From NCBI GenBank assembly GCA_051745145.1, contig JBNJDT010000007.1:1-61711 (forward strand): a stretch of DNA of 61,711 nt. Direction: 5' to 3'. Both the position numbers and the translations under genes were made by a program. The stretch is from Elusimicrobiota bacterium. Its GTDB lineage: Bacteria > CG03 > SLGR01 > JAGXOG01. Below, piece by piece: positions 1,025-51,566 of the stretch (position 1 is its first letter; the number at the start of each line of letters is the position of its first letter). Below the pieces are notes generated by a model. The model had not been told where the DNA came from. It saw only the letters and a program-made list of their open reading frames with translations, and did no database searches.

Positions 1025-1501
1025 GTGAATAATAAGATGAAAAAAATCCTTTTAGTAGATGATAATCCTTCTATACGTAGAATAGGGAAGTTTATGCTGG
1101 AAAAAAATTATGAGGTAATAAGTAGCTCTGATGGTCAAGACGGGGTAGATACCGCTAAAAAAGAACTTCCCGACCTCATACTCATGGATGTGCAGATGCC
1201 TGAAATGAACGGTATAGAAGCTACAAAAGCGATTAAGGCCCATCCGGAAACAAAAAATATACCTGTTATCATTGTCTCTGGTCAGGGAAAAGAAACCGAG
1301 GTAATGGAGGGCATGCAGGCCGGTGTCGAAGATTATGTAGTAAAACCTTTTGATGCGGAAGATCTTAATCGTAAGATAAAAAAGTATATAGGTTCCGAAA
1401 CGCCCCCGAAAGAGCCCCAAAAAGGAAAAGGGATTAAGTTAGTTATATCTTTTATAGTTTTAGTTTTATTAGGGTTTTTTATTTTTAAATTCTTAATGTA
1501 G
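1025..1501 (+). CDS. CheY-like single receiver-domain response regulator with C-terminal transmembrane anchor
   Basis: Intact receiver motifs LLVDDN, LILMDVQMP (phospho-Asp), IIVSG, VKPF. C-terminal hydrophobic LVISFIVLVLLGFFIFKFLM. The start could be GTG 1025 or ATG 1037. Confidence 0.9.
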   Translation: MNNKMKKILLVDDNPSIRRIGKFMLEKNYEVISSSDGQDGVDTAKKELPDLILMDVQMPEMNGIEATKAIKAHPETKNIPVIIVSGQGKETEVMEGMQAGVEDYVVKPFDAEDLNRKIKKYIGSETPPKEPQKGKGIKLVISFIVLVLLGFFIFKFLM

Positions 1502-8212: not shown

Positions 8213-8261
8213 CTTTTAATAAAGTTATTTGAGTTTAATAATATTTATCAGGAAAAAAATA

Positions 8262-16265: not shown

Positions 16266-17384
16266 ATGAAAGACATAGATTTCAGGCTGTATACCGCGGC
16301 CAGCAACGGAGACACAGAATCGGTAAAGTCGCTGTTGGAGATCCGTGCGGACGTAAATACAACGATAGAGGGAAAGACAGCGCTTATGAGAGCGGCTATG
16401 GAAGGGCACGCCGGTACGGTAAAAACTTTAATAGATGCCGGAGCAAATCTTGAAAAAAGGGATGAGAAGGGCCGGACAGTTTTAATGAGAGAGGCAAAGA
16501 GGGGGAATGCGGATATAAGCCGGCTGTTAATAGAAGGAGGAGCAAACGTCAATGTAAAAGAAAACGGGACAACTGCCCTGATGGAAGCCGCCGGTCGGGG
16601 ACATCGCTATACATTAAAAACCCTTATAAAAGCAGAAGCAAAATTAGAAGAAAAAGATGAAAACGGGTGGACGGCTCTTCAAAGAGAAGCCAGGAGGGGA
16701 AATACCCGGATAGTGGATATGCTTATAGAGGCCGGGGCCAAGGTAAATGTATCGGATTCTAAGGGGGTGACCCCGCTTATAAGTGCCTCGCACGAAGGGC
16801 ACATAGAGACGGTAAAAAGCCTGCTGGACGGGGGAGCGAAGATAGATAAAAAGATAAGTAAAGGGGGAACGGCCTTGATGGCCGCGGCGTTTAGAGGGCA
16901 TACGGATATAGTGAGACTGCTTTTAGCCCGGGGGGCGGATGTAAGTATAGAGAACGAAAAAGGGTGGACGGCGCTGAAGATGGCTAAAAATCAGGGGCAT
17001 ACGGTAATAGAGTATATATTAAAAGAGGCCGGCGGGTCAGATAATGATTTTAACAGACCGCCGCTGATATGGGCAGTAATAAGAGAGAATAGCGAGAAAG
17101 TAAAAGAGCTGTTAGAATCGGGAGCCAGGGTGGAAGAAGAAGATGACCGGGGATGGGATGCATTGATGTACGCCATGGAGGCGGGAAATACCAAGATAGT
17201 ATCGCTTTTAAAAGAGGCGGGAGCCTCCCTGGATGAAGAAAAGATAAACGAGGTAAAATTAAAAAAGAGCTTATCTGAATTGCGCACGGCAGTAACTATG
17301 TACTATGAAGTAGAAGGGAATCCGCCAGAGAACCTGGAAGATCTGGTGCCCGAGTATATAGGAAAGTTGCCCGAAGGGGACTGG
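16266..17384 (+). repeat. 1,119-bp direct repeat, copy 2
   Basis: Matches 6886..8004. Confidence 0.95.
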
Positions 17385-17650: not shown

Positions 17651-17679
17651 TTGACAGGTATATTTTTTGATGTTATATT
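17651..17679 (+). promoter_or_regulatory. strong sigma70-type promoter of the giant-protein operon
   Basis: TTGACA (17651-56), 17 bp spacer, TGn extended -10, TATATT (17674-79). Confidence 0.7.
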
Positions 17680-17892: not shown

Positions 17893-20800
17893 GTGAATAA
17901 ACTAAAAAAAATATTTTATATTAGCAAGGTTACATTACAGCTTAGCTGGATTTTATTCATTAGCTTTTCTATAAATTTATCTATTGTATCAGCTGAAGAT
18001 GTCTGGACCGATGAAACTGATACGGATTTTGATACCGGTACGTCTACGGGAATATATATCAACGGCGTTGATGAGAGCGCAACGTTAGATTTAGAATGGT
18101 ACGGGAAAGAAACCGGGGCGTCGCTTCCTGAAAATTTAGAATGGGCAGATCAGGATTTTAAATACCGGAAAAGAGTGCGATTACAGTCTCCCGCCAATTA
18201 TACTATCCGGGATTATCAGATAAGATTATCTTTAGATACCCAATCGCTCATAGATGAAGGTAAACTGGAAGCCGACGGCAGTGATCTGAGGTTTTTTAAC
18301 AGTGAGGGCTCAAGTATTCCCTTTTGGATTGAAAAAGGGTTAAATACTGCCGAAACATATATCTGGCTTAAGATTGATCATTTTAGCGATTTTGAAACAA
18401 AAGATGTATATATGTATTACGGAAATCCTTCGGCAGTAAGTCAATCGGATTTTGATTCCACATTTATATTCGGAGACCACTATACCGCTCCCTATGGCTC
18501 TTCCCCGGACAGTGATAAATGGGATAATATACAGTATCCGAGCCCCCCTCAAGATGCTAAAAGGGAAATTGTTGAGAATAGATTGCGGTATAAATTTAAA
18601 ACTACTACCTCCACCAGTAAAGGATGGTATGGACTAAGGAGTACGGAGACATATAATTTTTCTGGCGGTCGCCGGATTGCAATAGATATGGAGGCGTTTA
18701 CCTACGGGCCGGGCCGGGAATCTTATTTTTCTCTCTGTCCTACCGTATCCGAGCGTTCGGAAAGAGAAGATGATTTTATCCAGTTTAAAATTTTTCACGA
18801 TACTCCCTCATATGTGATCCGGCAACGCCATAGAGGGGGGTTTAATACTATTGTCAGTGAAACGGATTTAAGTACCGGTACCCACAAAATAGATTTTTTT
18901 ATTGATTCCTCAAATTTAGAAGTGGATTTAGACGGTCAGACTGTATATTCGGGTTCTGTGGACCTGGATTTTACTTCGGCTTATCTATACCAGGAAGCAG
19001 TGTCTGAATCTGATATTTTTGAATATTACAACTTTGACAATTTAAAGATATCCAATTGGGAAACTGATTCTCCGTATGTAAGAGATATATACGAAGAGCA
19101 GGGAAGATACAAACCCTCGGGTATTTACACTTCCAGAGTAAAAGACACCGGTGACCAGGGGACTTATTTTAGTGAAGTTGACTGGACGTCAACTATTCCC
19201 GACCTTACAGATATAAGTGCCCAGGTAAGAGCCCATGATGACCAGGTTGATTCGGGTACCTGGACAGCAGTTTCTAAAGGTGAAAATCCCGGCGTAGAAG
19301 GAAGGTATGCCCAGTACAGGTTGAATTTAAATACCCAAAAACCCATCGATACCCCCCAGATAGATAAAGTGGATGTATTTTATATTTATGCTCCCGGAGC
19401 TCCGGTAAAACTCAGCGGCACCGGTGAGGGGGCTACAAGAATCCGTTGGAAATGGGAGTCAAGTTCTACTGAAAAAAATAAGGAAGACGGTTTCAGAATT
19501 TTAGATACAACCGGCAATATTAAAGGTAGCGTAGGAGCAGATAGTAAATCGTGGGACGAACTGGAATTAGAAGCTAACACTCCTTATACCCGTAAAATTG
19601 AAGCGTATAATGTGGCCGGGGCAAATAAATCCACGTATTCAGTTACAGCTTATACTCTGCCTACAGCTCCCCAGGTAGGCTGCGATAAAGGGGCGGATTC
19701 CTGGTATGGATCGGGATCGACTTTTACGTTCACCAATTATGCCGGATTCGGCCGGGGTAGTCTGGAATATTACGGTTATAAATGGTCCACTTCCACAGCA
19801 TATAACTGGACGGGCAATGAGTCCCACTGGAATAGCGACAAGTTAAAAATACAGCCCCAGCAGACGGGCAGTTATTACTTACACGTTTTAGCTTACAATG
19901 CCGATGATGTGGCAGGATACGATACCTACTACGGTCCTTATAAGTACGATGAAAGTCCGCCGGCTGTTTCAAAAATAGAACCTTCTTCAAGTGCCTGGAC
20001 AAGTGCTTCTCCGGAGGTGGAGATTGACTTTGAAAAACCCACTGAGGGAGCAGAACTTTTTGCCTGGCGGTATAATATCAATGAATATCCCGAAAAGCCG
20101 GCTTTTGGATGGACGAATTGGAATGATGAAATTATGGATTCCACAGCTGCTACAGTGGGAGTGGAAATTGGAAAGGAGGGAAATAATTACCTTCATATTG
20201 AGGTGAAAGATACAGCGGATAACGGCGATTATGACCTGGGAGGAGTTTATGAGCTGGACTTTAGTTCCCCAACCGGTTCAATAGTAATTAATGACGGGGA
20301 TACTTATGTCTCAACTACCAGCGTAATCTTATCTTTAACATACGAGGATGAATTATCGGGAGTGGAAAAAGTGAGATTTCAGAATGGGGATTCAGGATGG
20401 GATGACTGGTTGGCTCCCGCTTCGGAAATGAACTGGTCGCTTTTAAAAGGCACGGGAACTAAAACGGTTAAGTATCAAATCAGGGACGGGGTGGGTAATA
20501 TGTCTCCGGTTTACAGCGATACAATAATTTTAGATAATTTATTTCCGGAAGTTGTAGGTTTTCGTCCTTCCTCACATACCTGGACGAATAGTATTGTGGA
20601 TGTGGCTATGGATTTTAGACATGAAGGTCCGGCAAAGTTAAGTAAATGGCAGTATGTCGTATCACCCAGCGAAACAGAACCGGATTCGGGCTGGTCGCTG
20701 TGGAAGACGGATATTGATGGCCAATCCACCGCTACCGTTACAGTAGGCGGGGAAGTTGGGGTGAATTATCTCCATGTAAAGCTCGAAGACGGCAGCGGAA

Positions 20801-23800
20801 AACAGATATACGATTCCAGCGGACCCTACAAAGTTGACCAGGGAAATCCGTCGGGAGATATATTAATAGAAGCCGGAAATGTATATACCCCCACAACAAC
20901 CGTTACCCTTAACCTTTCTTATGAAGATTCAAAGTCCGGAGTGGAAAATGTAAGGTACCGCAACCAGGGAAAAAGCTGGTCCGGCTGGGAGTCGCCGGTT
21001 TCAACAAAGACCTGGTTTTTAGATGAGACAGTAGGAACTAAGGTAGTAGAATATCAGGTAGAGGATAAAGCCGGCAATGAGTCTGATGTTTATGCGGACG
21101 ATATTATTTACGATCCCGTGGAACCGGAAATATATGATTTTAATCCCTCTTCCTCCGGCTGGGTAAATAATTTTATTGATGTCGATATCTTTATTAGCGA
21201 TGAAGGCGATTCTGATCTTGAAGAATGGCGGTATATGGTTACCGAAAGTACCAGCAAGCCTCAGGCGGGCTGGCAAAACTGGGACAGTTCAATCTCCGGA
21301 AGCAGCGATACAATGGTAGAAGTTCTGCTTACCGACACTTTAAATTATCTTCATGTTGAAGCTGCGGACAAGGCCAATAATAAAAGCTATGGATATTCCG
21401 GCCCCTATAGAATTGATACGGAAAACCCTACGGGTTCAGTATCGATAAATGACGGTGACGAATATACCGATTCGAAAGATGTAAAGTTATCTTTAAATTA
21501 TGAGGATGGTGTTTCGGGAATTGAAGAAGTCAGATACAGAAACGGCGGAGAAAACTGGACGGAGTGGCAAAACCCCGTATCCACCAGATCCTGGACGCTG
21601 TCATCGGGAACGGGTACAAAAGTCGTTCATTACAATATAGAGGACAGAGCGGGCAACTCAAAAAGTTATTCAGATTCTATAGTTTTAAGTTATTTTTCTG
21701 AAATGAATGCGGAAGATAAATCTACAATATCCTCCGGAGAATCTCAGAGTGAAACCGAAAATTTTACAGCGGAAGCTAAGTTAACCTGGAAATCAACCGG
21801 CGATGAACTTAAGGATAAAGAAGTTGTATTTAAATTTGAAGGGTCCTCCCATACTTCCACTACAAATAATAGTGGAATAGCTTCTGCAGATTTTGAGGTT
21901 CCTCAATCCTCGGGAATTTATTATTATACCGCTGAATTTGAAGGGGACAGTAAGTACGTAGCGTCAAGCGATACCGGAGTCCTTACCGTGGACCGGAGAA
22001 AAATAACTATAAGAACTTCGGACCGGCAGGTCACAGCTGGTACTGATTTTCAGGCTAAAGCCACAGTGGAAGATTATGAGACAGAAGAGCCTTTAAAGGG
22101 AAAATTAATTACTTTTACTTACAAGCCGTCCACTTATACTCCCACCTATACTTCTACGGCAACTACAAATGAGATGGGGGTAGCCACCACAACTTTTAAT
22201 TCCGGAACTACAGATGGCGCTTTTGATTTAGTAGGAAATTACGAGGGGAATTCTATATACCGGGAAGAATCCGGCGCCGGAGAGGTGGCCGTTGGACTGA
22301 GATTTACTATCACTACTCCATTTCCATCTACTACCTTAGCATTGGATACGTTCACGGTTTCCGGGCAAGTCAAGGACGCTGAAAATGGATACGGTATCGA
22401 GGGGGGGACAGTAAAATTCACCCTTAACGGAGCTACTAAAACAGCGGTTACGGGTACGGGGGACAGCGCCGGAGAAGCAGAAACCGGCTGGGGGGATTCG
22501 ATAACCGACGCCGGGGAATACAAATTGAATATGGAATTTTTAGGGCAGGGATCCTATATGGCCAGTTCCGGGACTTCAACCATTACAGTTAATCAAAGAC
22601 CCCTGGTTCATAATTTTAAGGGGGAAATGTGGGATTATACGGTAACTACAACTACAATGGTATCTGAAATTGTAGATGGAAATACTTCGGAAGGTGTCGA
22701 AGGGCTGGAAGTTATATACAAATTCAGAAATATAAATAATACGGCCTATACGGACAGCGCCGGTTCCAGTACATCCAGCTTTTATACCGGAAATAAAGCG
22801 GCTAAATATATTACTACAGCAACTTTCCGGGGCAATTCAACTTACAAAAAAGTTCAGTCAACCGAGACATACCGGATTTACCGCCGGCCGACAGTAACTA
22901 CGGCTTTTGATGTGGAGTCTTTAACCCTGTCTTCTTTTACGGCCACCGCCCGTTTAAGGACCAGCGGGGGAGTAAATATTGAAGATAGGAAAATTAAATT
23001 TACGTTTCCGGACGGGGTACAAAAAAGTTCTTTTACAAATTCTTCCGGTAAAGCCCAGGTTATTCACAATGCCCCTCCGGAAAAAGGAACCTATACTTAT
23101 GAAGCGGACTTTACCGGCGACGATACTTACGCCCCTTCCGGCGGGGATGCGGATTTAGCAGTTTCACCGCGTCCGGCTATAATTATTATTAACTCCAGTG
23201 ATTGGGGATGGGCCAGAGATCCCATTCACCTTAATGCCAAGCTGACGGACGGCATTTCAAATGAATTAATATCCGGGGCTACGCTACATTTTAGTTTATA
23301 CGAAAATTCAGAGACTATATCAGAAATAACTCAAGAAGGGGAGGAGTGGGCCAGTGCCGGAGAATTCAGTCCCATAAATGTTTCCGGGTATTATGATTAC
23401 GGCGTAACTTTTGACGGCAGCCTAACTTATGAGGCGGATTCGGATTCAGAAGTTTATCACAACAGTTCCAGAGATATAAATGTTAATGCTCCCGATTACG
23501 ATGAGGTATTTGCTTTAAGCACATTTACGCTCCGGGGCACTGTTAAAGATAACACCTACCATTATGATTCGGGGGTTAATCTGGAAGGTCAGGAAGCTGA
23601 CTATTATCTGGAAGGGGCCACTCATACAGCTACATTAACCGGTCAGCCTGGTTCTACCAGGGCTTTCGACGCCCCTGCGGAAATCCAGGCTCCGGGTGTT
23701 CCGGATAATTACAGTTATACTCTGAATTATTCAGGAGATGCAGCGTATGATGCAGGTTCGGATGGCGGTAATTTGGAGGTAATAAGAAGGCCTACAAATA

Positions 23801-38800: not shown

Positions 38801-41800
38801 ATAAGAGACCGGCGAAATTGCTCGGAGATGATGTATGGGTAAGGCCAGACAGAGTATTTACCGCTACTACAACGCTGGAGGATGAATACTCGGGCGATGC
38901 CGTATCTTCGGCAACGGTTAATTTTAGCTATTATGACGGTGAATCCACCCAGACTTACTCAACTTTAACGGATCCAGAGGGGGTGGCTACAGCTACATTT
39001 ACTGCTTCAGCGGCTATGGGAATATACGAATACCGGGTTAGTTTTGAGGGCAATGATATTTACGGAGCCACTTCTGATACTCTGGAAGTAGAAGTTGATA
39101 AATATGAAACATCCCTGGCCATGGAACCGGTTACCGTACCTTTGGGCGAAATATTTAATTCTTCCGCTACTTTGACGGATACTGAAAACAATGAAACCCT
39201 GGCCGGAAAAGAAGTGGAGTTTATCTTTTATTCATCCCAGACGGTAACCCGGAATACTTTCACCGACGCTTACGGAGTGGCAGAATCGACTTTTGCAGCT
39301 CTGCCTTCTACCGGCAATTATATTGCGGAGGCAAATTTTTATGAAGATGACAGTTATCACTATTCCGGTACCACACAAACGGTAACTGTTATAAGGCGCC
39401 AGACGGAACTTACCGGAGAATCGGTAAATGTCAAACCGGAGAAAATATTTACTGCCACGGCCACTTTAAAAGATGCAGTTGGAAGTAAGACGGCCCTGGG
39501 GTCTAAAACAGTAACTTTCTCTTATTATGACGGTTCATCCACTGCCACAGTTACAAAGGTAACGGATTCATACGGGAATGTTTATTCTACATTTACTGCT
39601 CCTGCGGCAACCGGGACATATTCAGTTGCTGTGGAGTTTGCCGGTGACAGCGAATATAAAGAAAGCTCTGATATTATAAATGTCTATACTACCCAAGAAG
39701 GAGCGGGGGGAGGGTTAAAGCTCAGGGCGTATGATACCGGCGTTATTTTAGAAGAGAATTTCACTGCTTCGGCAAAACTTACCGATGAAGATGAGCCTCT
39801 GGTAAACAGTACAGTAACTTTTACCTTTGATGGGACCACAAGAACTGTTACTACAGACAGCCTGGGCATTGCTTCAACTACTTACAGTGCTCCTCCATCT
39901 ACCGGAGAGTATATGTATACCGCCGACCACGAAAGATCTTATATAACTATTACCGACGGCGGTTTTGTGGAGGTATCCAGAAGGCCCACGGTTTTATCTA
40001 AAGAGAGGGATGTAAATACAAATGTGGAAGCGATATTCTCATCCACGGTTACCCTCACGGATTTTACGACCGGCGATACTTTATCCGGTAAAGAAATTAA
40101 GACCAGTTTTTATAAAACCGGCTCGACCGTTACATTTGAGGGTTCAACCGGTGAATACGGGATGTCCGGGTCCACTTTTACCGCTCCCACATCGAGCGGG
40201 ATATATACTATGGAATCTGTATTTTCCGGGGATAGTATTTATGGAATCAGCAGCGAACTGATAACTGTAAATGTTTCCAGAAGACCTCTGATTTTAGAGA
40301 CTAACAGGGTAACCACAAAACCCGATCAGATATTTACCGCGACCGCCACTCTTACCGGCGGTGTAACAAAGCTGCCGGTGGAACAGAAAGAGTTAGAGTT
40401 TAACTATTATAACGGAGTTTCTACGGAGACTGTCTACAGAGAAACGGACAGCTCCGGGGTGGCTGAAGCGACTTTTACAGCTCCTGAAAATACGGGAGAT
40501 TACAGTTATTCTGTCTCCTATCCCGGAGACAGTAAATATCAGTCGGTTTCGGAGACAGAAATAGTGGAAGTTAAAAACAGATTAACCGAAATAACTGCTG
40601 AGAACGTTTTTGTGCCCTCGGAAGGAGTTTTTAAAGCTACTGCTACTCTGGTTGATATTGAAGACAGCAGTAAAATGTCCCAAAAGGAAGTAACTTTTGA
40701 ATTTTATAAAACCGGCTCCACCCGGACAGCTACAGTTTTTACAGACTCTTCGGGTATATCAACAGCGACTTTCAGCGCTCCATTTGATGCGGGAACCTAT
40801 GAATACAGCGCCGAATTTTCCGGAGACAGCACTTATGCATCTTCTGAGGATACCGCAGAAGTTTATGTAGGCAAAAGATCTGCTGAACTTGTTACTCCTT
40901 CGGGCCTGAATTTGTATGTTGAACAGGTATTTACAGCTTCAGCTACCGTAAAAGACGGTTTTGACGGAACAGAGCTGTCCTCCGTTCCGGTTACATTTAA
41001 CTATTTTAAGGGAAATTCTACTCAGACGGTAACTCATTTTACGGATGATTATGGGGTAGCCAATACTACCTTTGAAGCTCCGGTTTCCTCGGGTGTTTAC
41101 AGTTACAGCGCTGAATTTTCCGGTAATGACAATTACGAACCGGCGACCGGGGAAGCGCTAATTAATGTTGATAACTATGCAACTGATTTAGTATTACAGG
41201 TGCCCAACAGTATATTTATCGGGCAAACCCTGCAGTCAACCGGTACCCTTACTCGAAATGAAGGCGGAATACCGGTTGAAGGTCAGGAAATAGCGTTTGA
41301 ATTTAACGGTTCTGTTAAAAAGAGAGATACCGGATCCGGGGGTATAGGAAATGCTGATTTTTCGTCCCCGGCTTCTTCGGGAACGTATACCATGGATCTT
41401 ATTTATGAGGGCACGGCTACCTATAAACCTTCTTCTGATAATAATGAAATCAGCGTATTGAGAAGACCCACCGAAATAGACGGTCAATCGGTTTCGGTAC
41501 CCCAGGATACTGTCTTTACGGCTACAGCTACTTTAGTGGATTATTTATCGGAGGATAAAATTGAGGGTTCCAGACCCGTACAATTTACTTTTACTGCCGG
41601 GACTACCACTTATTACTCCGAAGATGAGACCAGCAACGGCATAGCCGTTTCTACCTTTATGGCTCCCTCTTCTACCGGAATTTACAGCTGCAGCGCGGTA
41701 TTTGAAGGAGACAATACATTTATGAATTCCAGCGATATATTTTCAGTTCACGTAACCTATGACGAGGGAGAAGGAGAGGGGACTTCCGAAACTGAAATAA

Positions 41801-44800
41801 TAACCGAAAAAGTTTCTACTCACCTGCAGGAAGTATTTGTGGCCACAGCAACTTTGCTAAGCGAAGAGACCCCCCTTGAAGATAAAAATTTAACATTTAA
41901 TTTTGAGGGAGCTTCCCTCACGGCAAAAACCGATCAATACGGAGTGGCCACGGCTACTTTTAGCGTCCCCGGCTCCACAGCCACTTATTATTATGATGTT
42001 GAATATGCCGGTGATGATGTTTTTCTCCCGGCCACAGGCATGAATAAAGTAATAGTTTCCAGACGTCCTGTTGAACTATACACTCAGTACAGCGAGATAG
42101 CGGTAAAGCCCGAACAGAAATTCACTTCTACGGTGACCCTAAGAGACGCCTTAAATACTGACGGTCTGGATTTAAGGGAAGTAACATTTAGTTTTGAAGA
42201 CGGCAGTTCTACGCCGACTGAAACAGAAGTTACTGACGGTTACGGCGTTTCCTATCCTACATTTACTGCGCCGCTGACAGCGGATACTTATTATCTGGAT
42301 ATGTATTACGGCGGCGATGAACTTTACAGCGAAATTTCCCGGCGCCTGGCAGTACTGGTCACTCCCGAGGGAGTGGGGAATGAAGACGTTGAAATTACGG
42401 TTGAAGATGTCACCGCCTATGTAGATGAAGTGTTTACCACTACCGCCACTTTAAGAGAATTAGATGAAAATACGGGGGTGGCCAACAGCACTATCACATT
42501 CGATTTTTCTGATACCCAAAAAGATGCTGTTACTGATCAGGAGGGGGTAGCTACAGCTACTTTCACGGCCGGCCAGGGCGCGGGTGAGTATAAATATTAT
42601 GCAAATTTTATGGGAGATTCCACGTACTCTTCGGCTTCAGGCGAGGGAAATGTATTAATTCAACTGTGGCCTACGGAAATGACTTCAAAGAATTTGGCCA
42701 TGGAACCCTCAACGGGAACGGAGACATTTACGGCAGAAACTACTCTTCTTGATGTGGAAAAATCGACCGGTCTGGCGTCAAAACCGGTGACTGTGAGTTT
42801 TTACGATGGAGTTTCCACCTACACTTATTCCGGGGATACAGACAGCTACGGATTATTTACAGCTACTTTTCCGGTTCCCTCGACTGAAGGGGAATACAAA
42901 TATATATCCGAATTTACGGGGGACGGGACCTACGATTCAAGCAGTGCGGAGGGGATTGTCACCGTATCCGAAGAAGGGACCGGAACTAATGAATGCGAAC
43001 TGGCGCTTCAAAATTCATTTGTCTACGTGAATAAAGAATTTACCTCCACGGCAACTTTAAAAGAGCTGTCTACCGGTGATCCTCTGGCAAATAAGACTGT
43101 AATATTTGCGTTTGACGGGGAGGAAAAAATTGCCACAACCGACCAAAACGGCGTGGCCGGCGCCAGTTTTGTAGCCGATACTGCAACCGGAACCCAAAAT
43201 ATAACGGCAGAATTTGAAGGGGACGCCGATTATGCAGCGGCAAACGATGATGCTATTGTCTATGTTGAGCTTAATCCTACTGACCTTATCGCAAAAGATG
43301 TAAATACCAATCTCCAGGCAGAAAATTTTAAAGCGACCGCTACTCTTAAAAATATGTTAAATGATGAACCGCTTCTAAATAAAACTTTAGAATTTATCTT
43401 TTACGATGGTACTTCAACTCAGACTGCAACAACCCAGACCGACGGCTACGGAAAAGCAAATGTCTATTTTTCCACTCCCGAATCTACGGGCTCATTTAAC
43501 TATTTAGTGAATTTTAACGGAGACAGCGAGTATGAATCCAGCGATGCCGAAGCGGCAGTAATAGTAGAATCCGGCGGCGAAGATGACGGGGATAATTCCG
43601 GCAAAGGAACGGAAGTTACCATGATTCTGGAGGAGATAAATACTTCGGTTAACAGTGTTTTTACGGCCACGGCCACGCTTGTAGAAGCAGATAATCCGTC
43701 AGAATATATTTCAGACAGGGAAGTGGTATTTGGTTTTGAAGGTTCTTCTAAAACTGCTCTAACCGGTAGCAAAGGACGGGCCCGGGTCTCATTTGACAGT
43801 CCGGCAAGTACGGGAGTATATGTTTTAGCGGCCGAATTTAAAGGGGATGATACTTACAGTGAAGTTTTGTCTACCAATTCTGTAAATGTCGGATTTTTGC
43901 CCCGGGATCCGGAATATGTTAGGGTTTTTGAAAGCACTGAAAAGAATGTAACTTTTAAATGGCCCTCCGTAAAACAGTCCGTAACCGGAGAAAATATGGG
44001 AACCTGTTTTAAAGGTTATACTGTTGAAAAAGCAATAGGAAGACCGGGGAGCTGGGAAAAAGTGGCGGAACTAAGTACTGCAACTTTTGAATATCAGGTA
44101 CCAAAACCTGAAAGTGAAAGTGTATTCTACAGGGTCCGGGGCCGCACGGCCAAACATTTAAGCGCCGGCCAGAACGGGGTTGAAGTAGACGGGGGGAATG
44201 TAATTAACCGGATTGTAATATCCGCTGATAAACAGGTCTGGGCTCAGGTCGATGAAAGAGAAATGGAAGAGAATGAGAAAATTGTTGTGGAGCCCGACGA
44301 AGAACAGGAAGAAGGTTTTCAGAAGATGTATAGCGTTAAAGTTCTCCACAACGGCCGGGAAGTAGATAAACAGTTTAAGTACAGAGGGGTGAAGCTGACT
44401 TTCTCCTATGAAAGTTTGAAAAGGGACGGTTTAATAACCGGATTATCCGCTGAAGATAAAAAACTGGTCCTATTCTGGCACAATGGCGTTGAATGGATCC
44501 GCATAGGCGGTAAAGACAACAGATGGGAGGATGAAATTTATGTATATACCAAGAATACCGGACGGTTTGCTATAAAGGCTGTTGAAGAATCCAACGAATT
44601 TAACTTAATAAAGGTTACCCCCAGGATATTTACCCCGGAGGCGACGTCGAAAAATATAAACCGGGCCAGGTTTGAACTTGAAAATCCGAATTACAGAAAT
44701 ATAGCCATAAGAATTTATGATATGTCGGGACAAATTATCCGAAGGAATCTCGATTCCGAATCGGGAGATCTCTATTACTGGGATGGTAAAGATGAAACCG

Positions 44801-44886
44801 GCGATTATGTAAGCGGCGGTGTTTATGTATACCAGATAGAAGCAGACGGAAAAATAATAAACGGTACTGTAGTAGTGGCAAAATAA
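17893..44886 (+). CDS. giant 8,997-aa secreted surface protein/adhesin: DUF2341, FN3-like, roughly 75 Ig-like repeats, T9SS-like (FlgD-Ig) CTD
   Basis: Single uninterrupted ORF with signal peptide (..SIVSA/ED). DUF2341-like motif (DYQIRLSLDT...DGSDLRF...IPFWIE...VYMYYGNP). ~96-97 aa repeats 'R.T.L......F.ATATL.D.....I....V.F.F.G...TA.TD..GvA...FTAP...G.Y.Y.A.F.G...Y..S'. C-terminus VTPRIFTP...IRIYDMSGQ...WDGKDETGDYVSGGVYVYQIEA...NGTVVVAK. The repeat count is an estimate from length. Confidence 0.92.
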   Translation: MNKLKKIFYISKVTLQLSWILFISFSINLSIVSAEDVWTDETDTDFDTGTSTGIYINGVDESATLDLEWYGKETGASLPENLEWADQDFKYRKRVRLQSPANYTIRDYQIRLSLDTQSLIDEGKLEADGSDLRFFNSEGSSIPFWIEKGLNTAETYIWLKIDHFSDFETKDVYMYYGNPSAVSQSDFDSTFIFGDHYTAPYGSSPDSDKWDNIQYPSPPQDAKREIVENRLRYKFKTTTSTSKGWYGLRSTETYNFSGGRRIAIDMEAFTYGPGRESYFSLCPTVSERSEREDDFIQFKIFHDTPSYVIRQRHRGGFNTIVSETDLSTGTHKIDFFIDSSNLEVDLDGQTVYSGSVDLDFTSAYLYQEAVSESDIFEYYNFDNLKISNWETDSPYVRDIYEEQGRYKPSGIYTSRVKDTGDQGTYFSEVDWTSTIPDLTDISAQVRAHDDQVDSGTWTAVSKGENPGVEGRYAQYRLNLNTQKPIDTPQIDKVDVFYIYAPGAPVKLSGTGEGATRIRWKWESSSTEKNKEDGFRILDTTGNIKGSVGADSKSWDELELEANTPYTRKIEAYNVAGANKSTYSVTAYTLPTAPQVGCDKGADSWYGSGSTFTFTNYAGFGRGSLEYYGYKWSTSTAYNWTGNESHWNSDKLKIQPQQTGSYYLHVLAYNADDVAGYDTYYGPYKYDESPPAVSKIEPSSSAWTSASPEVEIDFEKPTEGAELFAWRYNINEYPEKPAFGWTNWNDEIMDSTAATVGVEIGKEGNNYLHIEVKDTADNGDYDLGGVYELDFSSPTGSIVINDGDTYVSTTSVILSLTYEDELSGVEKVRFQNGDSGWDDWLAPASEMNWSLLKGTGTKTVKYQIRDGVGNMSPVYSDTIILDNLFPEVVGFRPSSHTWTNSIVDVAMDFRHEGPAKLSKWQYVVSPSETEPDSGWSLWKTDIDGQSTATVTVGGEVGVNYLHVKLEDGSGKQIYDSSGPYKVDQGNPSGDILIEAGNVYTPTTTVTLNLSYEDSKSGVENVRYRNQGKSWSGWESPVSTKTWFLDETVGTKVVEYQVEDKAGNESDVYADDIIYDPVEPEIYDFNPSSSGWVNNFIDVDIFISDEGDSDLEEWRYMVTESTSKPQAGWQNWDSSISGSSDTMVEVLLTDTLNYLHVEAADKANNKSYGYSGPYRIDTENPTGSVSINDGDEYTDSKDVKLSLNYEDGVSGIEEVRYRNGGENWTEWQNPVSTRSWTLSSGTGTKVVHYNIEDRAGNSKSYSDSIVLSYFSEMNAEDKSTISSGESQSETENFTAEAKLTWKSTGDELKDKEVVFKFEGSSHTSTTNNSGIASADFEVPQSSGIYYYTAEFEGDSKYVASSDTGVLTVDRRKITIRTSDRQVTAGTDFQAKATVEDYETEEPLKGKLITFTYKPSTYTPTYTSTATTNEMGVATTTFNSGTTDGAFDLVGNYEGNSIYREESGAGEVAVGLRFTITTPFPSTTLALDTFTVSGQVKDAENGYGIEGGTVKFTLNGATKTAVTGTGDSAGEAETGWGDSITDAGEYKLNMEFLGQGSYMASSGTSTITVNQRPLVHNFKGEMWDYTVTTTTMVSEIVDGNTSEGVEGLEVIYKFRNINNTAYTDSAGSSTSSFYTGNKAAKYITTATFRGNSTYKKVQSTETYRIYRRPTVTTAFDVESLTLSSFTATARLRTSGGVNIEDRKIKFTFPDGVQKSSFTNSSGKAQVIHNAPPEKGTYTYEADFTGDDTYAPSGGDADLAVSPRPAIIIINSSDWGWARDPIHLNAKLTDGISNELISGATLHFSLYENSETISEITQEGEEWASAGEFSPINVSGYYDYGVTFDGSLTYEADSDSEVYHNSSRDINVNAPDYDEVFALSTFTLRGTVKDNTYHYDSGVNLEGQEADYYLEGATHTATLTGQPGSTRAFDAPAEIQAPGVPDNYSYTLNYSGDAAYDAGSDGGNLEVIRRPTNINSASKDPYAGDEFLASAELGDSNSGDPIEEKEITFYFEGSTITADTDSSGVAKATFTAPGVPGIYEYRAAFGGNYLYEPSSGTASVDVQERPTSLSPADREPYAGEVFNPRATLSDSVSGDEIEGEEVTFYFEGNTRTAVTDENGVAKSTFTAPMVSTETYNYTAGFEGTYLYESSSGSASVDVQKRPTGLAAESRDPYANDEFYPRATLTDNVSGGSVEGEEIKFYFEGETKTARTNSSGVAVTTFTAPSVSTGSYNYTASFEQTYLYESSTGNANVAVQKRPTGLAAESREVYANNEFYPHATLSDSVSGDNVEGEPVNFYFEGETKTAQTDSNGVAVTTFTAPSVSTKSYTYTAGFDGTYLYESSTGTANVNVQKRPSALAAESREVKANNQFNPQATLTDTDSGEKIENKEILFYFEGETKTALTDSSGMAITTFTAPSVSTESYSYTASFEGTYLYESSTDSAGVNVQKRPTNLTANFREPYANNEFQTKATLSDTDSSENIENKEITFNFEGETKTARTDAQGIAITTFTAPSVSTESYSYTASFEGTYLYESSSGTENVNVQKRPTNLSADTREVYANNEFYPRATLGDTAPGDENMEGEEIYFYFDGSTKTAVTDKDGVAISTFTAPSVSTESYSYTASFKGTYLHVKSTGTAEVTVKKRPTSLAANSREPYANNEFYPRATLTDTAEGGGSVENEEIEFYFRGSTKTALTNGEGVAVTTFTAPSVSTESYTYTAGFKGTYLYVSSTDTAGVNVQKRPTSVSADSREPLAASTFTARAELKDIDDNSFISGKEVKFIFEGATKTATTDGVGVATVSFTAPLDPRGDYSYTSIFTGDYLYESSTGSANVNVLKRPSNINVPNQWEYALEDFTATAVLTDNENGDVIDDEVTFTNSWSTSSEVAFLNEENDDYRVTFTAPSPPTGTYTFTASFSGNNLYSASTGTANLSVVKRPTVINASEREPRADDEFQLKANLKDDWGDILTDKKVSFNLDWTTYTQTADTEQDGNAYLTVTAPEIPGTYSYEAGYEGNYLYESSTDTAQVDVKKRLSQLTASSKDVPVENTFTAGTTLTDAEDGYALEGATVTFTFEEVQKATVTDSAGNAWADFETSTPTRNTSYKVNFNGSQKHLSSTKTASVNIHLRETSVTGDAVEVEVEDNFFARARVKDDDSGSYLADRNLYFEFLGSTDTAATGPAGERAEVSYTAPVSTGIYYFSVDHSSSPVYAASSDQSQVKVIPAEMQLTAYSKNVLALSSPTLRAHLKNMVDESNFSSATVKFFMLGSTETEKTGDAGNAYATFDWDLIGSTGTYQYQASYEGDATHDPDSDTANLTVERRPTNIVAYNKETNAGADFKAEAELKDQTTNDFIKDKTVYFYFEGSTKTALTSSVGIATATFTTPSSTQTLSYTAEFKDDDPIYIGNWDTGDVEIAQSETNMEVTRVDVYPGDVFVATATLTNAVSGNPLSEKEVTITFTTHSVTDNTTGEGIVTGEFTAPVSTGNYNIHAKYDGSDSYLESSDDDYAVVRKCETTIEAHNRYFYLKETGNLVADLTRVDNSTGIPNKTIEFEIEGTTYTKTTDSNGRAVKYIGELSTETFPVSGNYTDYDYDSRFNQDDSDYYYGKSKDNSQLFRVRKRLTSLTTYDRETYINGQFTARADLNDTTGDSDVALEDRTILFDFEGSTKSASTDSTGKAEVTYDVPATSGTYSYTASFSSSPVYRAADSDSNVTVSRIPTSITPDDKKVKTNTSFDLRGNLQDNDSNSLEDKAIKFEFQESTDSAVTDASGWAQTGYTSPSTPAVYYGYLNFEGNSEYQPSNATATITVTKSSTTVDAEDLYDLPPSSVFTATSTVTDDDTGIRVTNVDVMYVMWDGSSHTVNTTGSGMAEFEYSSPDTLGEYEYTVKFFENDQYFASQSTGIVTVTQGTSKISLSSPTVYVDNVFYATATLKNAVNDEPIEEADIHFNFEGIEKITQTDEMGVATVTYTANVPEGDSEYDLNAYYPETDSFTGSSSTTTVNVLKRDTELTSEDISAYVGDIIQSTATLTDLQASAGVDQETVEFNYYENSSDHLQNRQTDSEGVAVATFTPTAAGMWDMYINFYETAKYRASSSTRTVEVSKIPTTLEAEASTGVYVTEEFYPRATLTNDLDNGGIENETVIFDINYDTFTASGTAQTNSDGLAIATFTASQAGNITYTSTFEENDMYLASTDTVNLEIDRYPVDIKVDDVLTTANEYFNSTATLTNPVLADEPIEDKVAEFSFYKTDPPEVKYSTTDASGEAITEFLSPSEGGEFEMVVQVEQDRIYESTSTTANVVVERRETTIQNVNDFTVKVQESFTSTATLKDAVDDTPIDTEDLNFVFFGSTHTDTTNASGEASVSANAASQVGIYSYKVYFNESGLYKSTEAIAEVTVEPAPTTLDAESHIEVLANSVFQATATLKNELTEDPAQSETIEFTFEGSTATGETSSSGLATSSNLEVDVGAGDYIYYADFNGSSNYTSSSDTGTVTVSKNPTETHTEDITTMASGSHPGGKFPPGGNRDVYFTSTGTLLDSNDNPVEGKTLDFYFAQGTDFFQDASATTDSEGKAVVTDFVSPTSVGTYEVEIDFSGDERYKASSGTGTVEVTERYATLSLDDSYATAMEVFTSTVYVEDFNSGEPVGGSTMTFRYEEDYNNSTTYEAVTDTMGYAYAEFTAAADASIDYDMKVDFYDVNYQTNSAVSTVFMSKRDTALNFKDITGVVYENLTATATLVDTVSDPDSSLSDKQISFTFPEGFSPTSASDDTDLTGEANAEVTAPDTYNTYYPTAEFPGDNTYASSNSDAQADILRRDSSLTVQDMADQKVYDVFTVTAAFIDEYGPDGDVSGRDIELRFYNGTSTQTQTSVTDSSGEATAEFTAPAQAGTYSYSAQFSTDSAYNGSVSASKDVAVLKRDPEVDAVEVNTETYDEFETVATFTDPDSGGDVENREIKFVYSGTTTIEKTKYTDETGQATAGFTAPDTAGTYSYEAVFVGDSSYNSSTSTAKNINVSRRTIDIAATPADTETFDLFTATATITDSHTPAGDVEGRTVQFVYEDDGGAVIDQKTSVTDSNGVANVDFNAGDASGIYQYKAILEEDYSYNSSTSAYVDVNIAKSDINIAGEEVASLPMETFKATATLTSPKNGPVSDENIEFTFEGDIQTDVTDSNGEAFVQFTAPASSGNYYYQAEFSGNASYYSSSTDTLVKVGKREANITAENVNTETMDIFTATATVTDSIGGGDVSDRDVEFTFSGDGNTVIKTAQTDSNGVAVSTFTAPDTDGAYSYTAELLEDGTYKSALSAPADVIVDKRTLSVTGSDITVLVMENFTTEATLTDSKPNSQLGGLPVKFVYSGTDTITKTGTADNSGYAEVTYNGVDFAATGHSYKAIFEGNSSYYSSTGPVYNVTFEKRDALISADSVNTETMDIFSATATVTDDHASSGDVSNRAVEFNFYGDGNTVTKTFQTDEFGVAVATFTAPADAGNYSYDAQLLEDEAYNASSAESAGVAVEKRETTLVNEDITTYALDVFTATATVTDKDGGVSGITVNFSGSVNGINISESAVTDGSGVATTVIDSTEATSAAGNFILSAEFPGNSTYKSSSNDSQLTIEKIPTSLNIDGIVAHRVYDKIDQLFAAELKDSRDGSGAGNKDCRFVFFTDPKKENTETTGSSGWAYSTFYAPASSGTYDYKAVFDGNDAYLSSTSTVKSVTINRRNLNMSVGNLETKTFATFTATATLSDPNNSDGQGDVEDRLVNMVFKDETDTEIDSAQVYTDASGRAFADFTAPDVGGTYYYHAEFDGDSSYISTTSVDATVTVQKRETQITAEPVNTKTLEVFNATATLMNSSGAPVEGKSLDFVYTGTDTITKTDTTRSDGKAYSLFNAPASSGTYSYKAVFSGDDSYKSSTSPAVDVNVARRDSNVAAEPVTTKTLEVYKATATMSDKDGPVDNKELTFTVQYSTYSRESTDVTNSQGQAYVDFRAPESSGTYNLTVEFTGDSTYKPDSDTKTVFVDTRDTAVQVYGVESKTYDVFKATSVLKDGESGNPISDIQLEFTFNGTQRYDTTDQQGKASVSYTAPSAAGDYELSSSFEGNSTYSPASGTNTVVVTKRDTDITARDVDTVAMTVFKATATLEDKDGGVENKNIDFSFEGQDKSANTDSQGMAVVEFDAPVSSGTYTYFAEFPEDPGHLGSSTQAQVTVTRRKTDMYTFELTTNTLGDFTVEAQIEDQKTGEGMAVPVDIVFEGTSTITKSDNSGSSGWVSTNFNTPAQSGDYRYFAQFDGNQTYEPSSSSSPVTVTKRETFLSAAAAQALASDSSIGQTETFETVGTIRDEENKLVNGVDLVFTFETVYSTETTDSQGEAAAQFNSPEDATLEYSYAVNFNGNETYQASSTSAVVTVNKRESQMSGLQDLTTTTEEYFYSTATLRDPGSVSPLEGKVVDFKVDTIKEGEDTTDSAGEAHFKHNIQVTGQKQLVANFAGDETYKATADTCTITVGIPTNLTVYDANSIVESTFTVKADLWDSLNDVRLSTKTVKLNFDGQEKSQETDAVGEIYIDYYSGVERGTGTFPVYGEFEGDDTYGPSSGEGSVTIELRPTHINAYPLTQYINEDIEPGGKLIDTDTGAGIKDKNLEFSFNYSTKVIQSDKTDDTGEVIETYKSPQSTGSYKYFMDFGGDNVYNHSAATGPVDIELRPSMVITEDRNIIAGSEFNVEAELIDTVDYTKINNENIKFEFNGDTATVLTGSRGIAVATFTAPGDTGQDYTYTATFDGTNIYSSHQSSSNINVGMESSVICEEVDTVIEQVFTATATLTDSEGTPLSTRPVTFIYSHNGSSDTVITGESGVATATFTAPGSTGSWNYQVKFEGDETYGASSDKADITVEGFNTSLTAAEAPNLNSEEVFVATATLYDEFNSEYVSGKEIQFSFEYDSDGKTTATAVTNAMGVATTTFRTPYEPGSYNYTALFTDDPAYSASGDTATVSVDKRPAKLLGDDVWVRPDRVFTATTTLEDEYSGDAVSSATVNFSYYDGESTQTYSTLTDPEGVATATFTASAAMGIYEYRVSFEGNDIYGATSDTLEVEVDKYETSLAMEPVTVPLGEIFNSSATLTDTENNETLAGKEVEFIFYSSQTVTRNTFTDAYGVAESTFAALPSTGNYIAEANFYEDDSYHYSGTTQTVTVIRRQTELTGESVNVKPEKIFTATATLKDAVGSKTALGSKTVTFSYYDGSSTATVTKVTDSYGNVYSTFTAPAATGTYSVAVEFAGDSEYKESSDIINVYTTQEGAGGGLKLRAYDTGVILEENFTASAKLTDEDEPLVNSTVTFTFDGTTRTVTTDSLGIASTTYSAPPSTGEYMYTADHERSYITITDGGFVEVSRRPTVLSKERDVNTNVEAIFSSTVTLTDFTTGDTLSGKEIKTSFYKTGSTVTFEGSTGEYGMSGSTFTAPTSSGIYTMESVFSGDSIYGISSELITVNVSRRPLILETNRVTTKPDQIFTATATLTGGVTKLPVEQKELEFNYYNGVSTETVYRETDSSGVAEATFTAPENTGDYSYSVSYPGDSKYQSVSETEIVEVKNRLTEITAENVFVPSEGVFKATATLVDIEDSSKMSQKEVTFEFYKTGSTRTATVFTDSSGISTATFSAPFDAGTYEYSAEFSGDSTYASSEDTAEVYVGKRSAELVTPSGLNLYVEQVFTASATVKDGFDGTELSSVPVTFNYFKGNSTQTVTHFTDDYGVANTTFEAPVSSGVYSYSAEFSGNDNYEPATGEALINVDNYATDLVLQVPNSIFIGQTLQSTGTLTRNEGGIPVEGQEIAFEFNGSVKKRDTGSGGIGNADFSSPASSGTYTMDLIYEGTATYKPSSDNNEISVLRRPTEIDGQSVSVPQDTVFTATATLVDYLSEDKIEGSRPVQFTFTAGTTTYYSEDETSNGIAVSTFMAPSSTGIYSCSAVFEGDNTFMNSSDIFSVHVTYDEGEGEGTSETEIITEKVSTHLQEVFVATATLLSEETPLEDKNLTFNFEGASLTAKTDQYGVATATFSVPGSTATYYYDVEYAGDDVFLPATGMNKVIVSRRPVELYTQYSEIAVKPEQKFTSTVTLRDALNTDGLDLREVTFSFEDGSSTPTETEVTDGYGVSYPTFTAPLTADTYYLDMYYGGDELYSEISRRLAVLVTPEGVGNEDVEITVEDVTAYVDEVFTTTATLRELDENTGVANSTITFDFSDTQKDAVTDQEGVATATFTAGQGAGEYKYYANFMGDSTYSSASGEGNVLIQLWPTEMTSKNLAMEPSTGTETFTAETTLLDVEKSTGLASKPVTVSFYDGVSTYTYSGDTDSYGLFTATFPVPSTEGEYKYISEFTGDGTYDSSSAEGIVTVSEEGTGTNECELALQNSFVYVNKEFTSTATLKELSTGDPLANKTVIFAFDGEEKIATTDQNGVAGASFVADTATGTQNITAEFEGDADYAAANDDAIVYVELNPTDLIAKDVNTNLQAENFKATATLKNMLNDEPLLNKTLEFIFYDGTSTQTATTQTDGYGKANVYFSTPESTGSFNYLVNFNGDSEYESSDAEAAVIVESGGEDDGDNSGKGTEVTMILEEINTSVNSVFTATATLVEADNPSEYISDREVVFGFEGSSKTALTGSKGRARVSFDSPASTGVYVLAAEFKGDDTYSEVLSTNSVNVGFLPRDPEYVRVFESTEKNVTFKWPSVKQSVTGENMGTCFKGYTVEKAIGRPGSWEKVAELSTATFEYQVPKPESESVFYRVRGRTAKHLSAGQNGVEVDGGNVINRIVISADKQVWAQVDEREMEENEKIVVEPDEEQEEGFQKMYSVKVLHNGREVDKQFKYRGVKLTFSYESLKRDGLITGLSAEDKKLVLFWHNGVEWIRIGGKDNRWEDEIYVYTKNTGRFAIKAVEESNEFNLIKVTPRIFTPEATSKNINRARFELENPNYRNIAIRIYDMSGQIIRRNLDSESGDLYYWDGKDETGDYVSGGVYVYQIEADGKIINGTVVVAK
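23790..26400 (+). repeat. block of closely similar intragenic tandem repeats (288-291 bp period)
   Basis: CAAAAACGGCC recurs at 24355, 24643, 24931, 25219, 25507 and 26089 (variant at 25798), encoding QKRP...FTAPSVST.SY.YTA.F.GTYLYESS. Confidence 0.9.
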
Positions 44887-51503: not shown

Positions 51504-51566
51504 ATTAAAGCCGTTATTTCCGGCGGGTTGAAATAAATACTAATCTACAGGGACTTTTAAAATTTA

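Follow-up and report, generated by a model that had tools for sequence, protein, structure and literature searches.

The giant gene and its domain architecture

The window analyzed here is a whole contig of 61,711 nucleotides (61.7 kb) from an Elusimicrobiota genome of 1.80 Mb, which is 92.6% complete. It carries a giant gene, which is followed by a gene for a PorV-like barrel protein and preceded by genes with similarity to the flagellar motor. The giant gene (17893..44886, +) starts with a GTG codon, the first possible in-frame start, and encodes 8,997 amino acids in an uninterrupted frame of 27 kb without an internal stop codon, as stated in an earlier note made from the sequence alone. It is the biggest open reading frame (ORF) of the genome, 4.6-fold larger than the runner-up of 1,966 amino acids, and occupies 1.5% of the assembly. 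The protein is rich in threonine (13.0%), serine (10.3%), aspartate (7.7%) and glutamate (7.7%), has a net charge of about -784 and contains only nine cysteines, which bears out the composition given in the note. Amino acids 1 to 34 (17893..17994, +) were recognized by eye as a signal peptide with a basic N-terminal end, a hydrophobic core and the sequence VSA/ED, and the relatives of the giant protein begin with a similar signal-peptide-like start.

The note had placed a DUF2341 and lectin-like head at the N-terminus, followed by FN3-like and paired modules, roughly 75 immunoglobulin (Ig)-like repeats and a C-terminal domain (CTD) at the base; domain-wise searches with hidden Markov models (HMMs) and AlphaFold models, which it had suggested, confirm this order, and each of the features lies well outside chance expectation. 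The DUF2341 beta-sandwich is located at amino acids 128-211 (18274..18525, +) and matches Pfam family PF10102 with 61.5-69.6 bits, above the gathering score of 23.4. The note had added that DUF2341 is also found on MotA/TolQ/ExbB-type proteins, which agrees with the accessible part of PMC12505986. The head (amino acids 35-505) was modelled with AlphaFold from ten family sequences (predicted local distance difference test (pLDDT) 81) and consists of a disordered lead-in, the DUF2341 sandwich, a ConA-like lectin/glucanase jelly roll (amino acids ~189-390; 18457..19062, +) and a further small beta-sandwich (amino acids ~395-500; 19075..19392, +), which is seen in the secondary structure of the model, closes the head and is conserved in the family. 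The best fold matches of the jelly roll are GH16 glucanases and O-glycanases (Z 18.6, root mean square deviation 3.0-3.1 over 184-195 residues), followed by the L-type lectins ERGIC-53, Emp47p and VIP36 (Z 16-17.4) and by carbohydrate-binding modules (CBMs) and phage receptor-binding domains (Z 15-16); a Foldseek search with the jelly roll gave an E-value of 3e-7. The head thus has the ConA-like beta-jelly-roll fold of the GH16 enzymes, and its description as lectin-like holds in the model. The catalytic strand of GH16 enzymes carries the motif ExDxxE. This strand reads EVDLD in the giant protein and VLLDG in the family consensus, and the head alignment has no invariant acidic pair at this strand. 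Since the catalytic strand is not kept, the head is more likely a binding module than an enzyme.

The fold matches nevertheless raise the question of whether the giant protein is a contact weapon or enzyme carrier directed against prey or a host, with the jelly roll acting as a GH16-type glycanase, as has been proposed for the giant proteins of Omnitrophota. The glycanases are the best matches of the head, at 1.8 Mb the genome is small, and the accessible parts of the West-Roberts preprint (bioRxiv 10.1101/2023.11.21.568195) and of PMC12057145 link predation with the giant genes found in Omnitrophota and Elusimicrobia. However, the catalytic strand is not kept, lectins and CBMs match almost as well (Z 15-17), and no domain of a catalytic, toxin or peptidase type was recognized by Pfam over all 8,997 amino acids. 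A weapon or enzyme carrier is thus an improbable reading, and a binding tip is favored here.

An FN3-like domain (amino acids ~503-595; 19399..19677, +) follows the head; as suspected in the note, it is recognizable as such, weakly by Pfam (E 0.017) and through the many FN3 segments of relatives that match it. The next segment (amino acids 596-1273; 19678..21711, +) is composed of one single and three paired modules, whose second halves are of the OmpL47 type or DUF7743. The three pairs with the patterns W.Y..YLHV and PTGSI.INDG, which the note had read from the sequence, occupy amino acids 700-1273 and can be aligned with each other; their second halves match NCBIfam NF047446 (OmpL47-type) in three stretches (57.7 bits, cut-off 40), and one of them matches DUF7743. 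The stalk consists of 75 tandem Ig-like (Big_3_5) domains (amino acids 1274-8668; 21712..43896, +), which were delimited with Pfam and with an HMM of 96 positions grown from one repeat of the giant protein itself. Exactly 75 repeats were found, end to end, each with an E-value below 1e-14 and with a median length of 98 amino acids, in keeping with the roughly 75 repeats of about 96 amino acids estimated before. The consensus of the 96 positions has the typical Big_3_5 pattern, the Pfam labels along the stalk are Big_3_5, Big_1 and Invasin_D3, and when the protein is divided into thirds, Big_3_5 (PF16640) reaches 199, 314 and 343 bits in them (cut-off 35.5).

The last 329 residues were modelled with a pLDDT of 78 and comprise an FN3 domain, a beta-sandwich and a CTD sandwich. 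The first two (43897..44601, +), defined by the model and the alignments A2 and A4, contain the motif FWxNGVEWxKxGG. A Foldseek search with the C-terminal region returned tandem FN3 arrays only, and a PDB-sequence profile search with alignment A4 returned titin FN3 domains and a weak match to the FlgD Ig domain. The protein ends in a type IX secretion system (T9SS)-type CTD (44602..44883, +; last residues GTVVVAK), with invariant columns in alignment A4. Its score against TIGR04183 is exactly at the cut-off (23.0 bits, cut-off 23; 24.9 bits in a second search), and it stays below the thresholds of Pfam Por_Secre_tail (PF18962; 15.4 vs. 27) and CHU_C (22.6 vs. 27). The domain sits at the extreme C-terminus, and its VVVAK end resembles that of the 13 other CTDs of the genome. 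The CTD base claimed in the note is thus found at the very end of the protein, with a score at the threshold.

Integrity and expression of the giant gene

The note had raised the possibility that the ORF is an artefact of repeat misassembly, and in a wider sense the giant gene could be the product of faulty assembly, a pseudogene or a relic that is not expressed. The source is a short-read metagenome-assembled genome, and the exact protein sequence is absent from a collection of 15 billion proteins. A contig of one DNA run (X2) joins position 24492 to 25475, with seven other letters between them, and thereby skips a segment inside the most similar repeats. In one relative (G042:C5:120008-121402, L090), the open frame that contains the head has just 628 amino acids, with the C-terminal module about 17 kb downstream, which is either an interrupted ortholog or a sequencing error. 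Against an artefact speaks that no stop codon occurs over 27 kb and that the repeats are diverged: their pairwise identity has a median of 29% and a maximum of 78%, identities of 60-78% between neighbours are confined to the youngest repeats (R8-R15), DNA self-matches over long stretches do not exceed ~76% identity, and the longest exact direct repeat within the gene has 32 nt. In four public runs, which stem from two studies, contigs with an identity of at least 95% cover 28-29 of the 30 bins of positions 17500-37499, and the joint table of these contigs lists no joint. The closest ortholog, L056, stems from an independent assembly and is 65% identical in the C-terminal region; it has 31 Ig repeats, which correspond to R45-R75 with 39-75% identity, 29 of them exactly in step. 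In addition, intact orthologs of 5,969, 6,070 and 6,824 amino acids are encoded in three other genomes, and the GC content at third codon positions (GC3) of the giant gene is ordinary. The diverged repeats, the short exact repeats and the mapping onto L056 contradict misassembly, which is very unlikely, and an artefact, pseudogene or relic of any kind is hardly credible. The one-to-one mapping further shows that each repeat has its own conserved identity and that the array is stable rather than fast-changing. The departure of contig X2, and that of a contig from an RNA run (X4), which diverges from the window 5' of position 17812, may be strain variants in repeat number and at the upstream junction, respectively.

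For expression of the giant gene, there is no more than a hint from metatranscriptome contigs, which lie along the gene in three runs of one study and could stem from DNA carry-over. A promoter-like site (TTGACA-17-TATATT with TG; 17651..17679, +), matching 11 of 12 positions, is located about 214 nt 5' of the start codon; such sites are no more numerous in the region than in shuffled sequences, so that it serves as a lead only. A riboswitch or structured leader 5' of the giant gene was considered and rejected: Rfam at the gathering level returned a single tRNA over the whole window, the search at E ≤1 gave one chance-level match (PK-HAV, E 0.068), and the fold z-score is 0.17. Likewise, a foreign origin of the giant gene is not indicated by its composition, as its GC3 of 0.40 falls within the range of the neighbouring genes (0.30-0.48); its higher GC content fits its content of threonine, alanine, glycine, aspartate and glutamate.

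A protein family with a conserved C-terminal module

An exhaustive HMMER search with the head returned 8,134 proteins at E ≤1e-3, most of which share DUF2341-type domains alone, often in multiple copies. Among the best 150 of these, the whole head was present in ten proteins, including two short fragments. In eight of the ten, the head is N-terminal and is followed by a single paired module and by 17-70 Ig repeats; the same CTD terminates four of these eight proteins, and the other four look cut by contig ends. With 75 repeats and three paired modules, the giant protein is the longest member of the family seen here. A comparison of repeat numbers, proposed in the note for strains and made here among relatives, thus gives a range of 17-75 Ig repeats per family member.

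The best-conserved part of the family is the C-terminal module, which consists of the FN3 domain, the FWxNGVEWxKxGG sandwich and the CTD with the sequence KVxPRIFTPE ... GTVVVAK. A search with the C-terminal alignment A2 against one genome each of 185,579 species recovered 33 loci, 30 of which carry Elusimicrobia, -ota, -ales or -aceae in their titles, while three are named 'bacterium' only. Judged by these titles, the family is restricted to Elusimicrobiota. Because 11 of the 33 loci encode complete small proteins of 744-1,278 amino acids with the same C-terminal module, the conserved unit is this module together with its partner protein, to which passengers of very different length are attached. 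Giant genes are common in Elusimicrobia according to the accessible parts of PMC12057145, PMC11573180 and the West-Roberts preprint, and no description of this family was found in these parts.

A proposed PorV-like partner for each cargo

The stop codon of the giant gene overlaps with the start codon of the following gene (TAATG; 44886..46640, +), which suggests that the translation of both genes is coupled. The partner protein possesses a signal peptide, a barrel of the PorV/PorQ family (amino acids ~30-320) and a helical tail of about 250 residues with tetratricopeptide repeats (TPRs). The barrel matches the PorV_fam model with 65.2 bits (cut-off 90, E 7.6e-18), and a PDB-sequence profile search with the partner alignment A3 returned TPR proteins. 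A PorV-TPR homolog is located directly 3' of the CTD of the family in 29 of the 33 loci, and three of the four exceptions have less than 1.5 kb of downstream sequence; of the 20 loci whose downstream sequence reaches at least 6 kb (the well-flanked loci), 19 have the partner. In many relatives (L057, L058, L068 and L070; for instance L057:11036-11434), a small gene for a protein of ~115-135 amino acids, composed of a signal peptide and a bare CTD, is inserted between the giant and the PorV-TPR gene; such a gene is absent from this window.

The pairing of CTD proteins and barrels is not confined to the giant gene. The genome contains 22 matches to the PorV family, ten of them above the cut-off of 90 and 12 adjoining a CTD gene, and 12 of the 14 CTD frames are followed by a PorV-family frame within 75-153 nt. 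The similarity among the CTDs co-varies with that among the barrels (r 0.39, a value reached by 12 of 5,000 permutations), and the CTD of the giant protein and its barrel have the same nearest paralog pair, which is located on contig C48. Taken together, the picture that emerges from these sequences is that of one private barrel per cargo in this genome.

Motor genes in the neighbourhood of the family

At the start of the window, a CheY-like receiver with a C-terminal membrane helix (1025..1501, +) is followed by a gene for a 469-amino acid protein (1551..2960, +), which is predicted to have a FliF-like topology fused to FliG: an N-terminal membrane or signal segment, a periplasmic part of ~130 amino acids, a second membrane helix (residues 163-185), a linker and the middle and C-terminal domains of FliG (248-457). 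The FliG_C domain scores 41.9 bits (cut-off 23.3) and matches 1lkv with an E-value of 2.4e-8; by eye, the positions of E. coli R281, D288 and D289 read Q, E and H in the 1lkv alignment. The next gene encodes a flagellar-type MotA (2961..3722, +; PF01618 94.3 bits, cut-off 22.9), whose residues 1-246 align to residues 1-246 of a solved MotA (E 4.7e-43). It is full-length, with four transmembrane segments and the cytoplasmic loop, and stays below the NCBIfam equivalog cut-offs (181 vs. 237). Two MotB paralogs with starts at 3719 and 4349 follow (3719..4954, +). MotB1 has a plug, the channel aspartate and an OmpA-like domain, while MotB2 (4349-4954) has, by eye, an alanine at the position of the ion-binding aspartate and may be a non-conducting, structural MotB. 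Zorya, a candidate explanation for the MotAB genes, was rejected, since PADLOC found no match to ZorA, only generic ZorB/OmpA matches for the MotB proteins and none for the other proteins. The export gate FlhA was not matched in the 92.6%-complete genome, while the controls from E. coli, B. subtilis, Caulobacter and Thermotoga scored above the cut-off.

Between the motor genes and the giant gene, a second cargo-barrel pair is encoded (8229..12100, +), which is composed of a 710-amino acid repeat protein with a CTD (start at 8229) and a PorZ-like tail and of a PorQ/PorV-like barrel with a coiled-coil tail (start at 10361). A PDB-sequence profile search with the 710-amino acid protein gave no match. 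The pair is followed by a gene for a 1,251-amino acid protein with TPR and Big_3_5 domains (12470..16225, +), which has Ig repeats in common with the giants of the family. An ankyrin gene flanks this segment on either side, and the two genes contain an exact direct repeat of 1,119 nt without mismatches, with copy 1 at 6886..8004 (+) and copy 2 at 16266..17384 (+), just upstream of the giant gene; 378 of the 382 amino acids of the two ankyrin-repeat proteins are identical. The copies, which bracket the genes for the CTD protein, the barrel and the TPR-Ig protein, point to a recent duplication or gene conversion, and the repeat may explain the permuted gene order of the window. The sole graph path through the repeat would keep the giant gene joined to the motor genes, whether or not it includes the bracketed segment.

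In related loci, the same genes recur downstream of the family. A FliG-like gene is present in 16 of the 33 loci (14 of the 20 well-flanked ones), MotA in 15 (14 of 20), MotB in 16 (15 of 20), and CheY, the ~710-amino acid CTD protein and the second PorV/PorQ-like barrel in 13 each (13 of 20 in each case); the cargo-barrel pair formed by the latter two is present in 13 of the 20 well-flanked loci. The cassette usually holds two MotB genes. Its order is permuted, with MotAB last in L062, L072 and L074 and with the motor genes upstream of the giant gene in this window, and cassette membership survives this reordering. The upstream regions of three orthologs have no cassette gene in common with the window apart from receiver domains. 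The PorV-TPR gene is directly beside the FliG-like gene in more than 20 places among the relatives. Furthermore, in another family of Elusimicrobiota (G015:C48; L037 and L038), genes for a FliG-like protein, MotA and two MotB proteins are located beside a 4,085-amino acid giant with beta-helix, FG-GAP and FN3 domains, after which an ankyrin gene follows. HEPN/nucleotidyltransferase toxin-antitoxin-like genes are inserted between the motor set and the giant at this locus. Literature searches on FliG and MotA in non-flagellated Elusimicrobia, on DUF2341 and on type IX secretion in Elusimicrobia found no description of this cassette.

It could be argued that the giant protein is a passive adhesin, biofilm or coat protein, which uses the same export and anchor, and that the FliG-like and MotAB proteins serve another process, with the adjacency reflecting shared regulation or history. 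Giant Ig-repeat surface proteins are common and mostly static adhesins, and in the accessible part of PMC11573180, giant prokaryotic genes have two main classes, one of which comprises surface proteins. In addition, motor genes are missing from six of the 20 well-flanked loci, a third of all loci (11 of 33) encode the small proteins with the same C-terminal module, and the other CTD-barrel pairs of the genome are not near its FliG-like gene, of which the search detected just one. However, membership of the cassette is kept through at least three gene orders and in several families of the phylum, and the PorV-TPR gene repeatedly adjoins the FliG-like gene itself. A purely passive role is therefore considered possible though rather unlikely, and a surface fibril that is connected with the motor cassette is preferred here.

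Several further features of the region were observed. The receiver at 1025-1501 has one C-terminal membrane helix and a degenerate receiver-like protein (5771-6469) has two; both resemble regulators that are tethered to the membrane and act on the cassette. The barrel encoded at 10361-12100 has a charged coiled-coil tail of ~270 amino acids, and the TPR/Ig gene contains a tandem duplicate of 201 nt (13877-14293; 82% identical, spacing 216 nt). A 5'-open frame (1-804) encodes a long coiled coil, and the matching place in genome G001 holds a frame of 911 amino acids. After the cassette region, a MoxR-DUF58-BatA/BatB/BatC/BatD-type operon is located at 50520-57896, which looks ordinary.

Candidate components of type IX secretion in the genome

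According to the accessible part of PMC7463736, the T9SS is specific to Bacteroidetes. The Elusimicrobiota genome encodes a SprA/Sov-like ORF of 1,698 amino acids (G000:C37:654-5747, L013), which matches the model of 2,319 positions in three co-linear stretches, is shorter than the model and scores just below its cut-off (185.4 bits, cut-off 200, E 1e-54). Look-alikes of 1,650-1,760 amino acids are present in 24 of 25 other Elusimicrobiota genomes searched. As outgroup genomes reach up to 672 bits, the search was able to see a true SprA. The ORF may represent a shortened T9SS-type translocon outside Bacteroidota. The PorU model NF033707 matched only the C-terminal CTD part of ten ORFs (best 44 bits, cut-off 420), so that no PorU sortase body was found in the 92.6%-complete genome. 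Searches of 41 genomes for GldK, GldL and GldM with TIGR03517, TIGR03513 and PF12081 gave no match, which is uninformative, since the SprA-positive outgroups were silent as well; TIGR03525 gave generic sub-threshold matches only, and no genome exceeded a cut-off. Overall, the T9SS seems to be partly present in this genome.

A surface fibril as candidate output of a flagellum-independent motor

We propose that the giant protein is a secreted cell-surface fibril of the adhesin type, about 0.3 µm long, which is held by a private PorV-like anchor and serves a flagellum-independent motor cassette as its cargo or output, and assign this interpretation a probability of roughly 0.6. Its best-founded part is the fibril with its private partner, which is probable; a functional coupling to the motor cassette is about an even bet, and actual movement of the fibril is doubtful. 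The protein would cross the inner membrane via Sec and the outer membrane via a divergent T9SS-like route with the 1,698-amino acid SprA/Sov-like translocon, guided by its CTD. The CTD would then be retained on the PorV-like barrel-TPR protein, so that the C-terminus forms the base and the lectin-fold head the tip. An Ig domain has a length of ~4 nm, and the 75 Ig domains together with about 12 other sandwiches of this size would place the head ~0.3 µm away from the cell. A link to the ring driven by MotAB would most readily be made by the periplasmic TPR tail of the barrel and the periplasmic part of the rotor protein. The motor could either power export or assembly in place of GldLM, or move or tension the anchored fibril in the way in which GldLM moves SprB, as described in the accessible parts of PMC8986121 and PMC7056307.

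A number of observations weigh against this interpretation. The CTD of the giant protein scores no higher than the curated threshold (23.0 vs. 23; Por_Secre_tail 15.4 vs. 27), and the barrel of the partner is under the PorV_fam cut-off (65.2 vs. 90). Paralogous pairs can also co-vary because each pair was duplicated as a unit, with no binding involved. A PorU sortase body was not found in the genome; GldK, GldL and GldM were not found in 41 genomes either, which says little, as none of these genomes exceeded a cut-off. By eye, the torque helix of the FliG-like protein and the loop of MotA do not exactly keep the charge pairs of E. coli. Finally, six of the 20 well-flanked loci have no motor genes within 10 kb, and in this window the giant gene is located ~13 kb from the motor genes, with the exact 1.1-kb repeat in between.

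It is tempting to speculate that the locus encodes a new envelope machine, in which a flagellar-type MotAB stator turns the fused FliF-FliG ring and the TPR or coiled-coil tails of the PorV-like barrels pass this motion on across the periplasm to a lectin-tipped adhesin of 0.3 µm. This far-reaching version is unlikely; if true, flagellum-less Elusimicrobiota would have gained a so far unknown way to glide, to reel in particles or partner cells or to sweep over them, and, outside Bacteroidota, the core of the flagellar motor would have been combined with cargo handling of the T9SS type in one hybrid. Such a motor machine may be new in kind. To our knowledge, Elusimicrobiota are widespread and almost wholly uncultured, and we know of no account of how they make contact with surfaces or partner cells. 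As the cell spends 1.5% of a 1.8-Mb genome on the giant gene, the gene must matter to it. Through the analysis, a formerly anonymous giant ORF becomes a member of a defined family, which has a lectin-fold tip, a stalk of individually conserved Ig domains and a C-terminal module, whose partner is fixed and which is recurrently linked to flagellar motor genes in cells without flagella. If this link is functional, T9SS-like cargo handling exists outside Bacteroidota, one barrel per cargo is an alternative to a shared PorV shuttle, and the flagellar torque core is reused for, or once worked for, something other than swimming.

Comparison with known systems

In Porphyromonas gingivalis, PorV shuttles cargo proteins to an attachment complex, which is formed by PorZ-PorQ and PorU-PorV. 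The locus described here resembles this system in the combination of CTD proteins with FadL-like PorV/PorQ barrels, and the cassette contains a protein with a PorZ-like tail beside a PorQ-like barrel. P. gingivalis uses one shared shuttle, whereas many private barrels with fused TPR or coiled-coil tails are found here.

The likeness to the flagellar motor core (FliF MS-ring, FliG and MotA5B2 stator) comprises MotA, which aligns end-to-end with solved MotA/PomA, the middle and C-terminal domains of FliG, and the plug, aspartate and OmpA-like domain of MotB1. In contrast to the flagellar motor, FlhA was not found in the genome, the FliF-like and FliG-like parts are fused in one protein of 469 amino acids, the neighbouring genes encode T9SS-type cargo proteins and barrels, and the charge pairs are not strictly kept.

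With the giant genes of Omnitrophota and Elusimicrobia and with Ig adhesins in general, the giant protein shares thousands of residues of tandem Ig domains, its acidic nature and its low cysteine content, and, as far as the accessible sources on these lineages describe it, the setting of an uncultured lineage with a small genome rich in giant genes. The family described here has a defined head, a defined C-terminal module, a partner gene that is fixed and a motor cassette, none of which was found in the accessible parts of these sources.

The closest functional parallel is the SprB-SprF system of Flavobacterium johnsoniae, to which the earlier note had compared the giant protein. According to the accessible parts of PMC9143113, PMC8986121 and PMC7056307, SprB is a giant repetitive adhesin with a C-terminal T9SS signal and an ion-driven motor of the MotAB superfamily, and the gene immediately downstream encodes an outer membrane beta-barrel, which is thought to hold the adhesin on the surface. 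The accessible part of PMC9143113 describes SprB-SprF and PG1035-PorP as type B CTD proteins, each held by its own PorP-like barrel; the same own-barrel principle is seen here, whereas the CTDs are type A-like and the barrels PorV-like. Pfam listed no SprB repeats in the giant protein, and its CTD matches the type A and CHU_C models and not type B. The partner belongs to the PorV/PorQ family and not to PorP/SprF, for which no search of the genome was made. The motor of SprB is GldL/GldM, whereas flagellar-type MotA/MotB proteins and a FliF-FliG-like fusion are encoded here, and SprB belongs to the phylum Bacteroidetes, to which the T9SS is specific in the accessible part of PMC7463736, whereas the giant protein stems from Elusimicrobiota. 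The idea of a SprB-like filament therefore stands only in part: the giant protein is not a member of the SprB family, while the tip-stalk-base architecture, the overlapping partner gene and the nearby motor module support it. Adhesion, gliding or prey contact, which the note had named, are putative roles. The comparison with SprB is strengthened by two features that the note had not used, namely the overlap of the cognate partner's gene with the stop codon of the giant gene and the conservation of a module for a proton-channel motor next to the family, and the analogy would hold for the working mode rather than for family membership.

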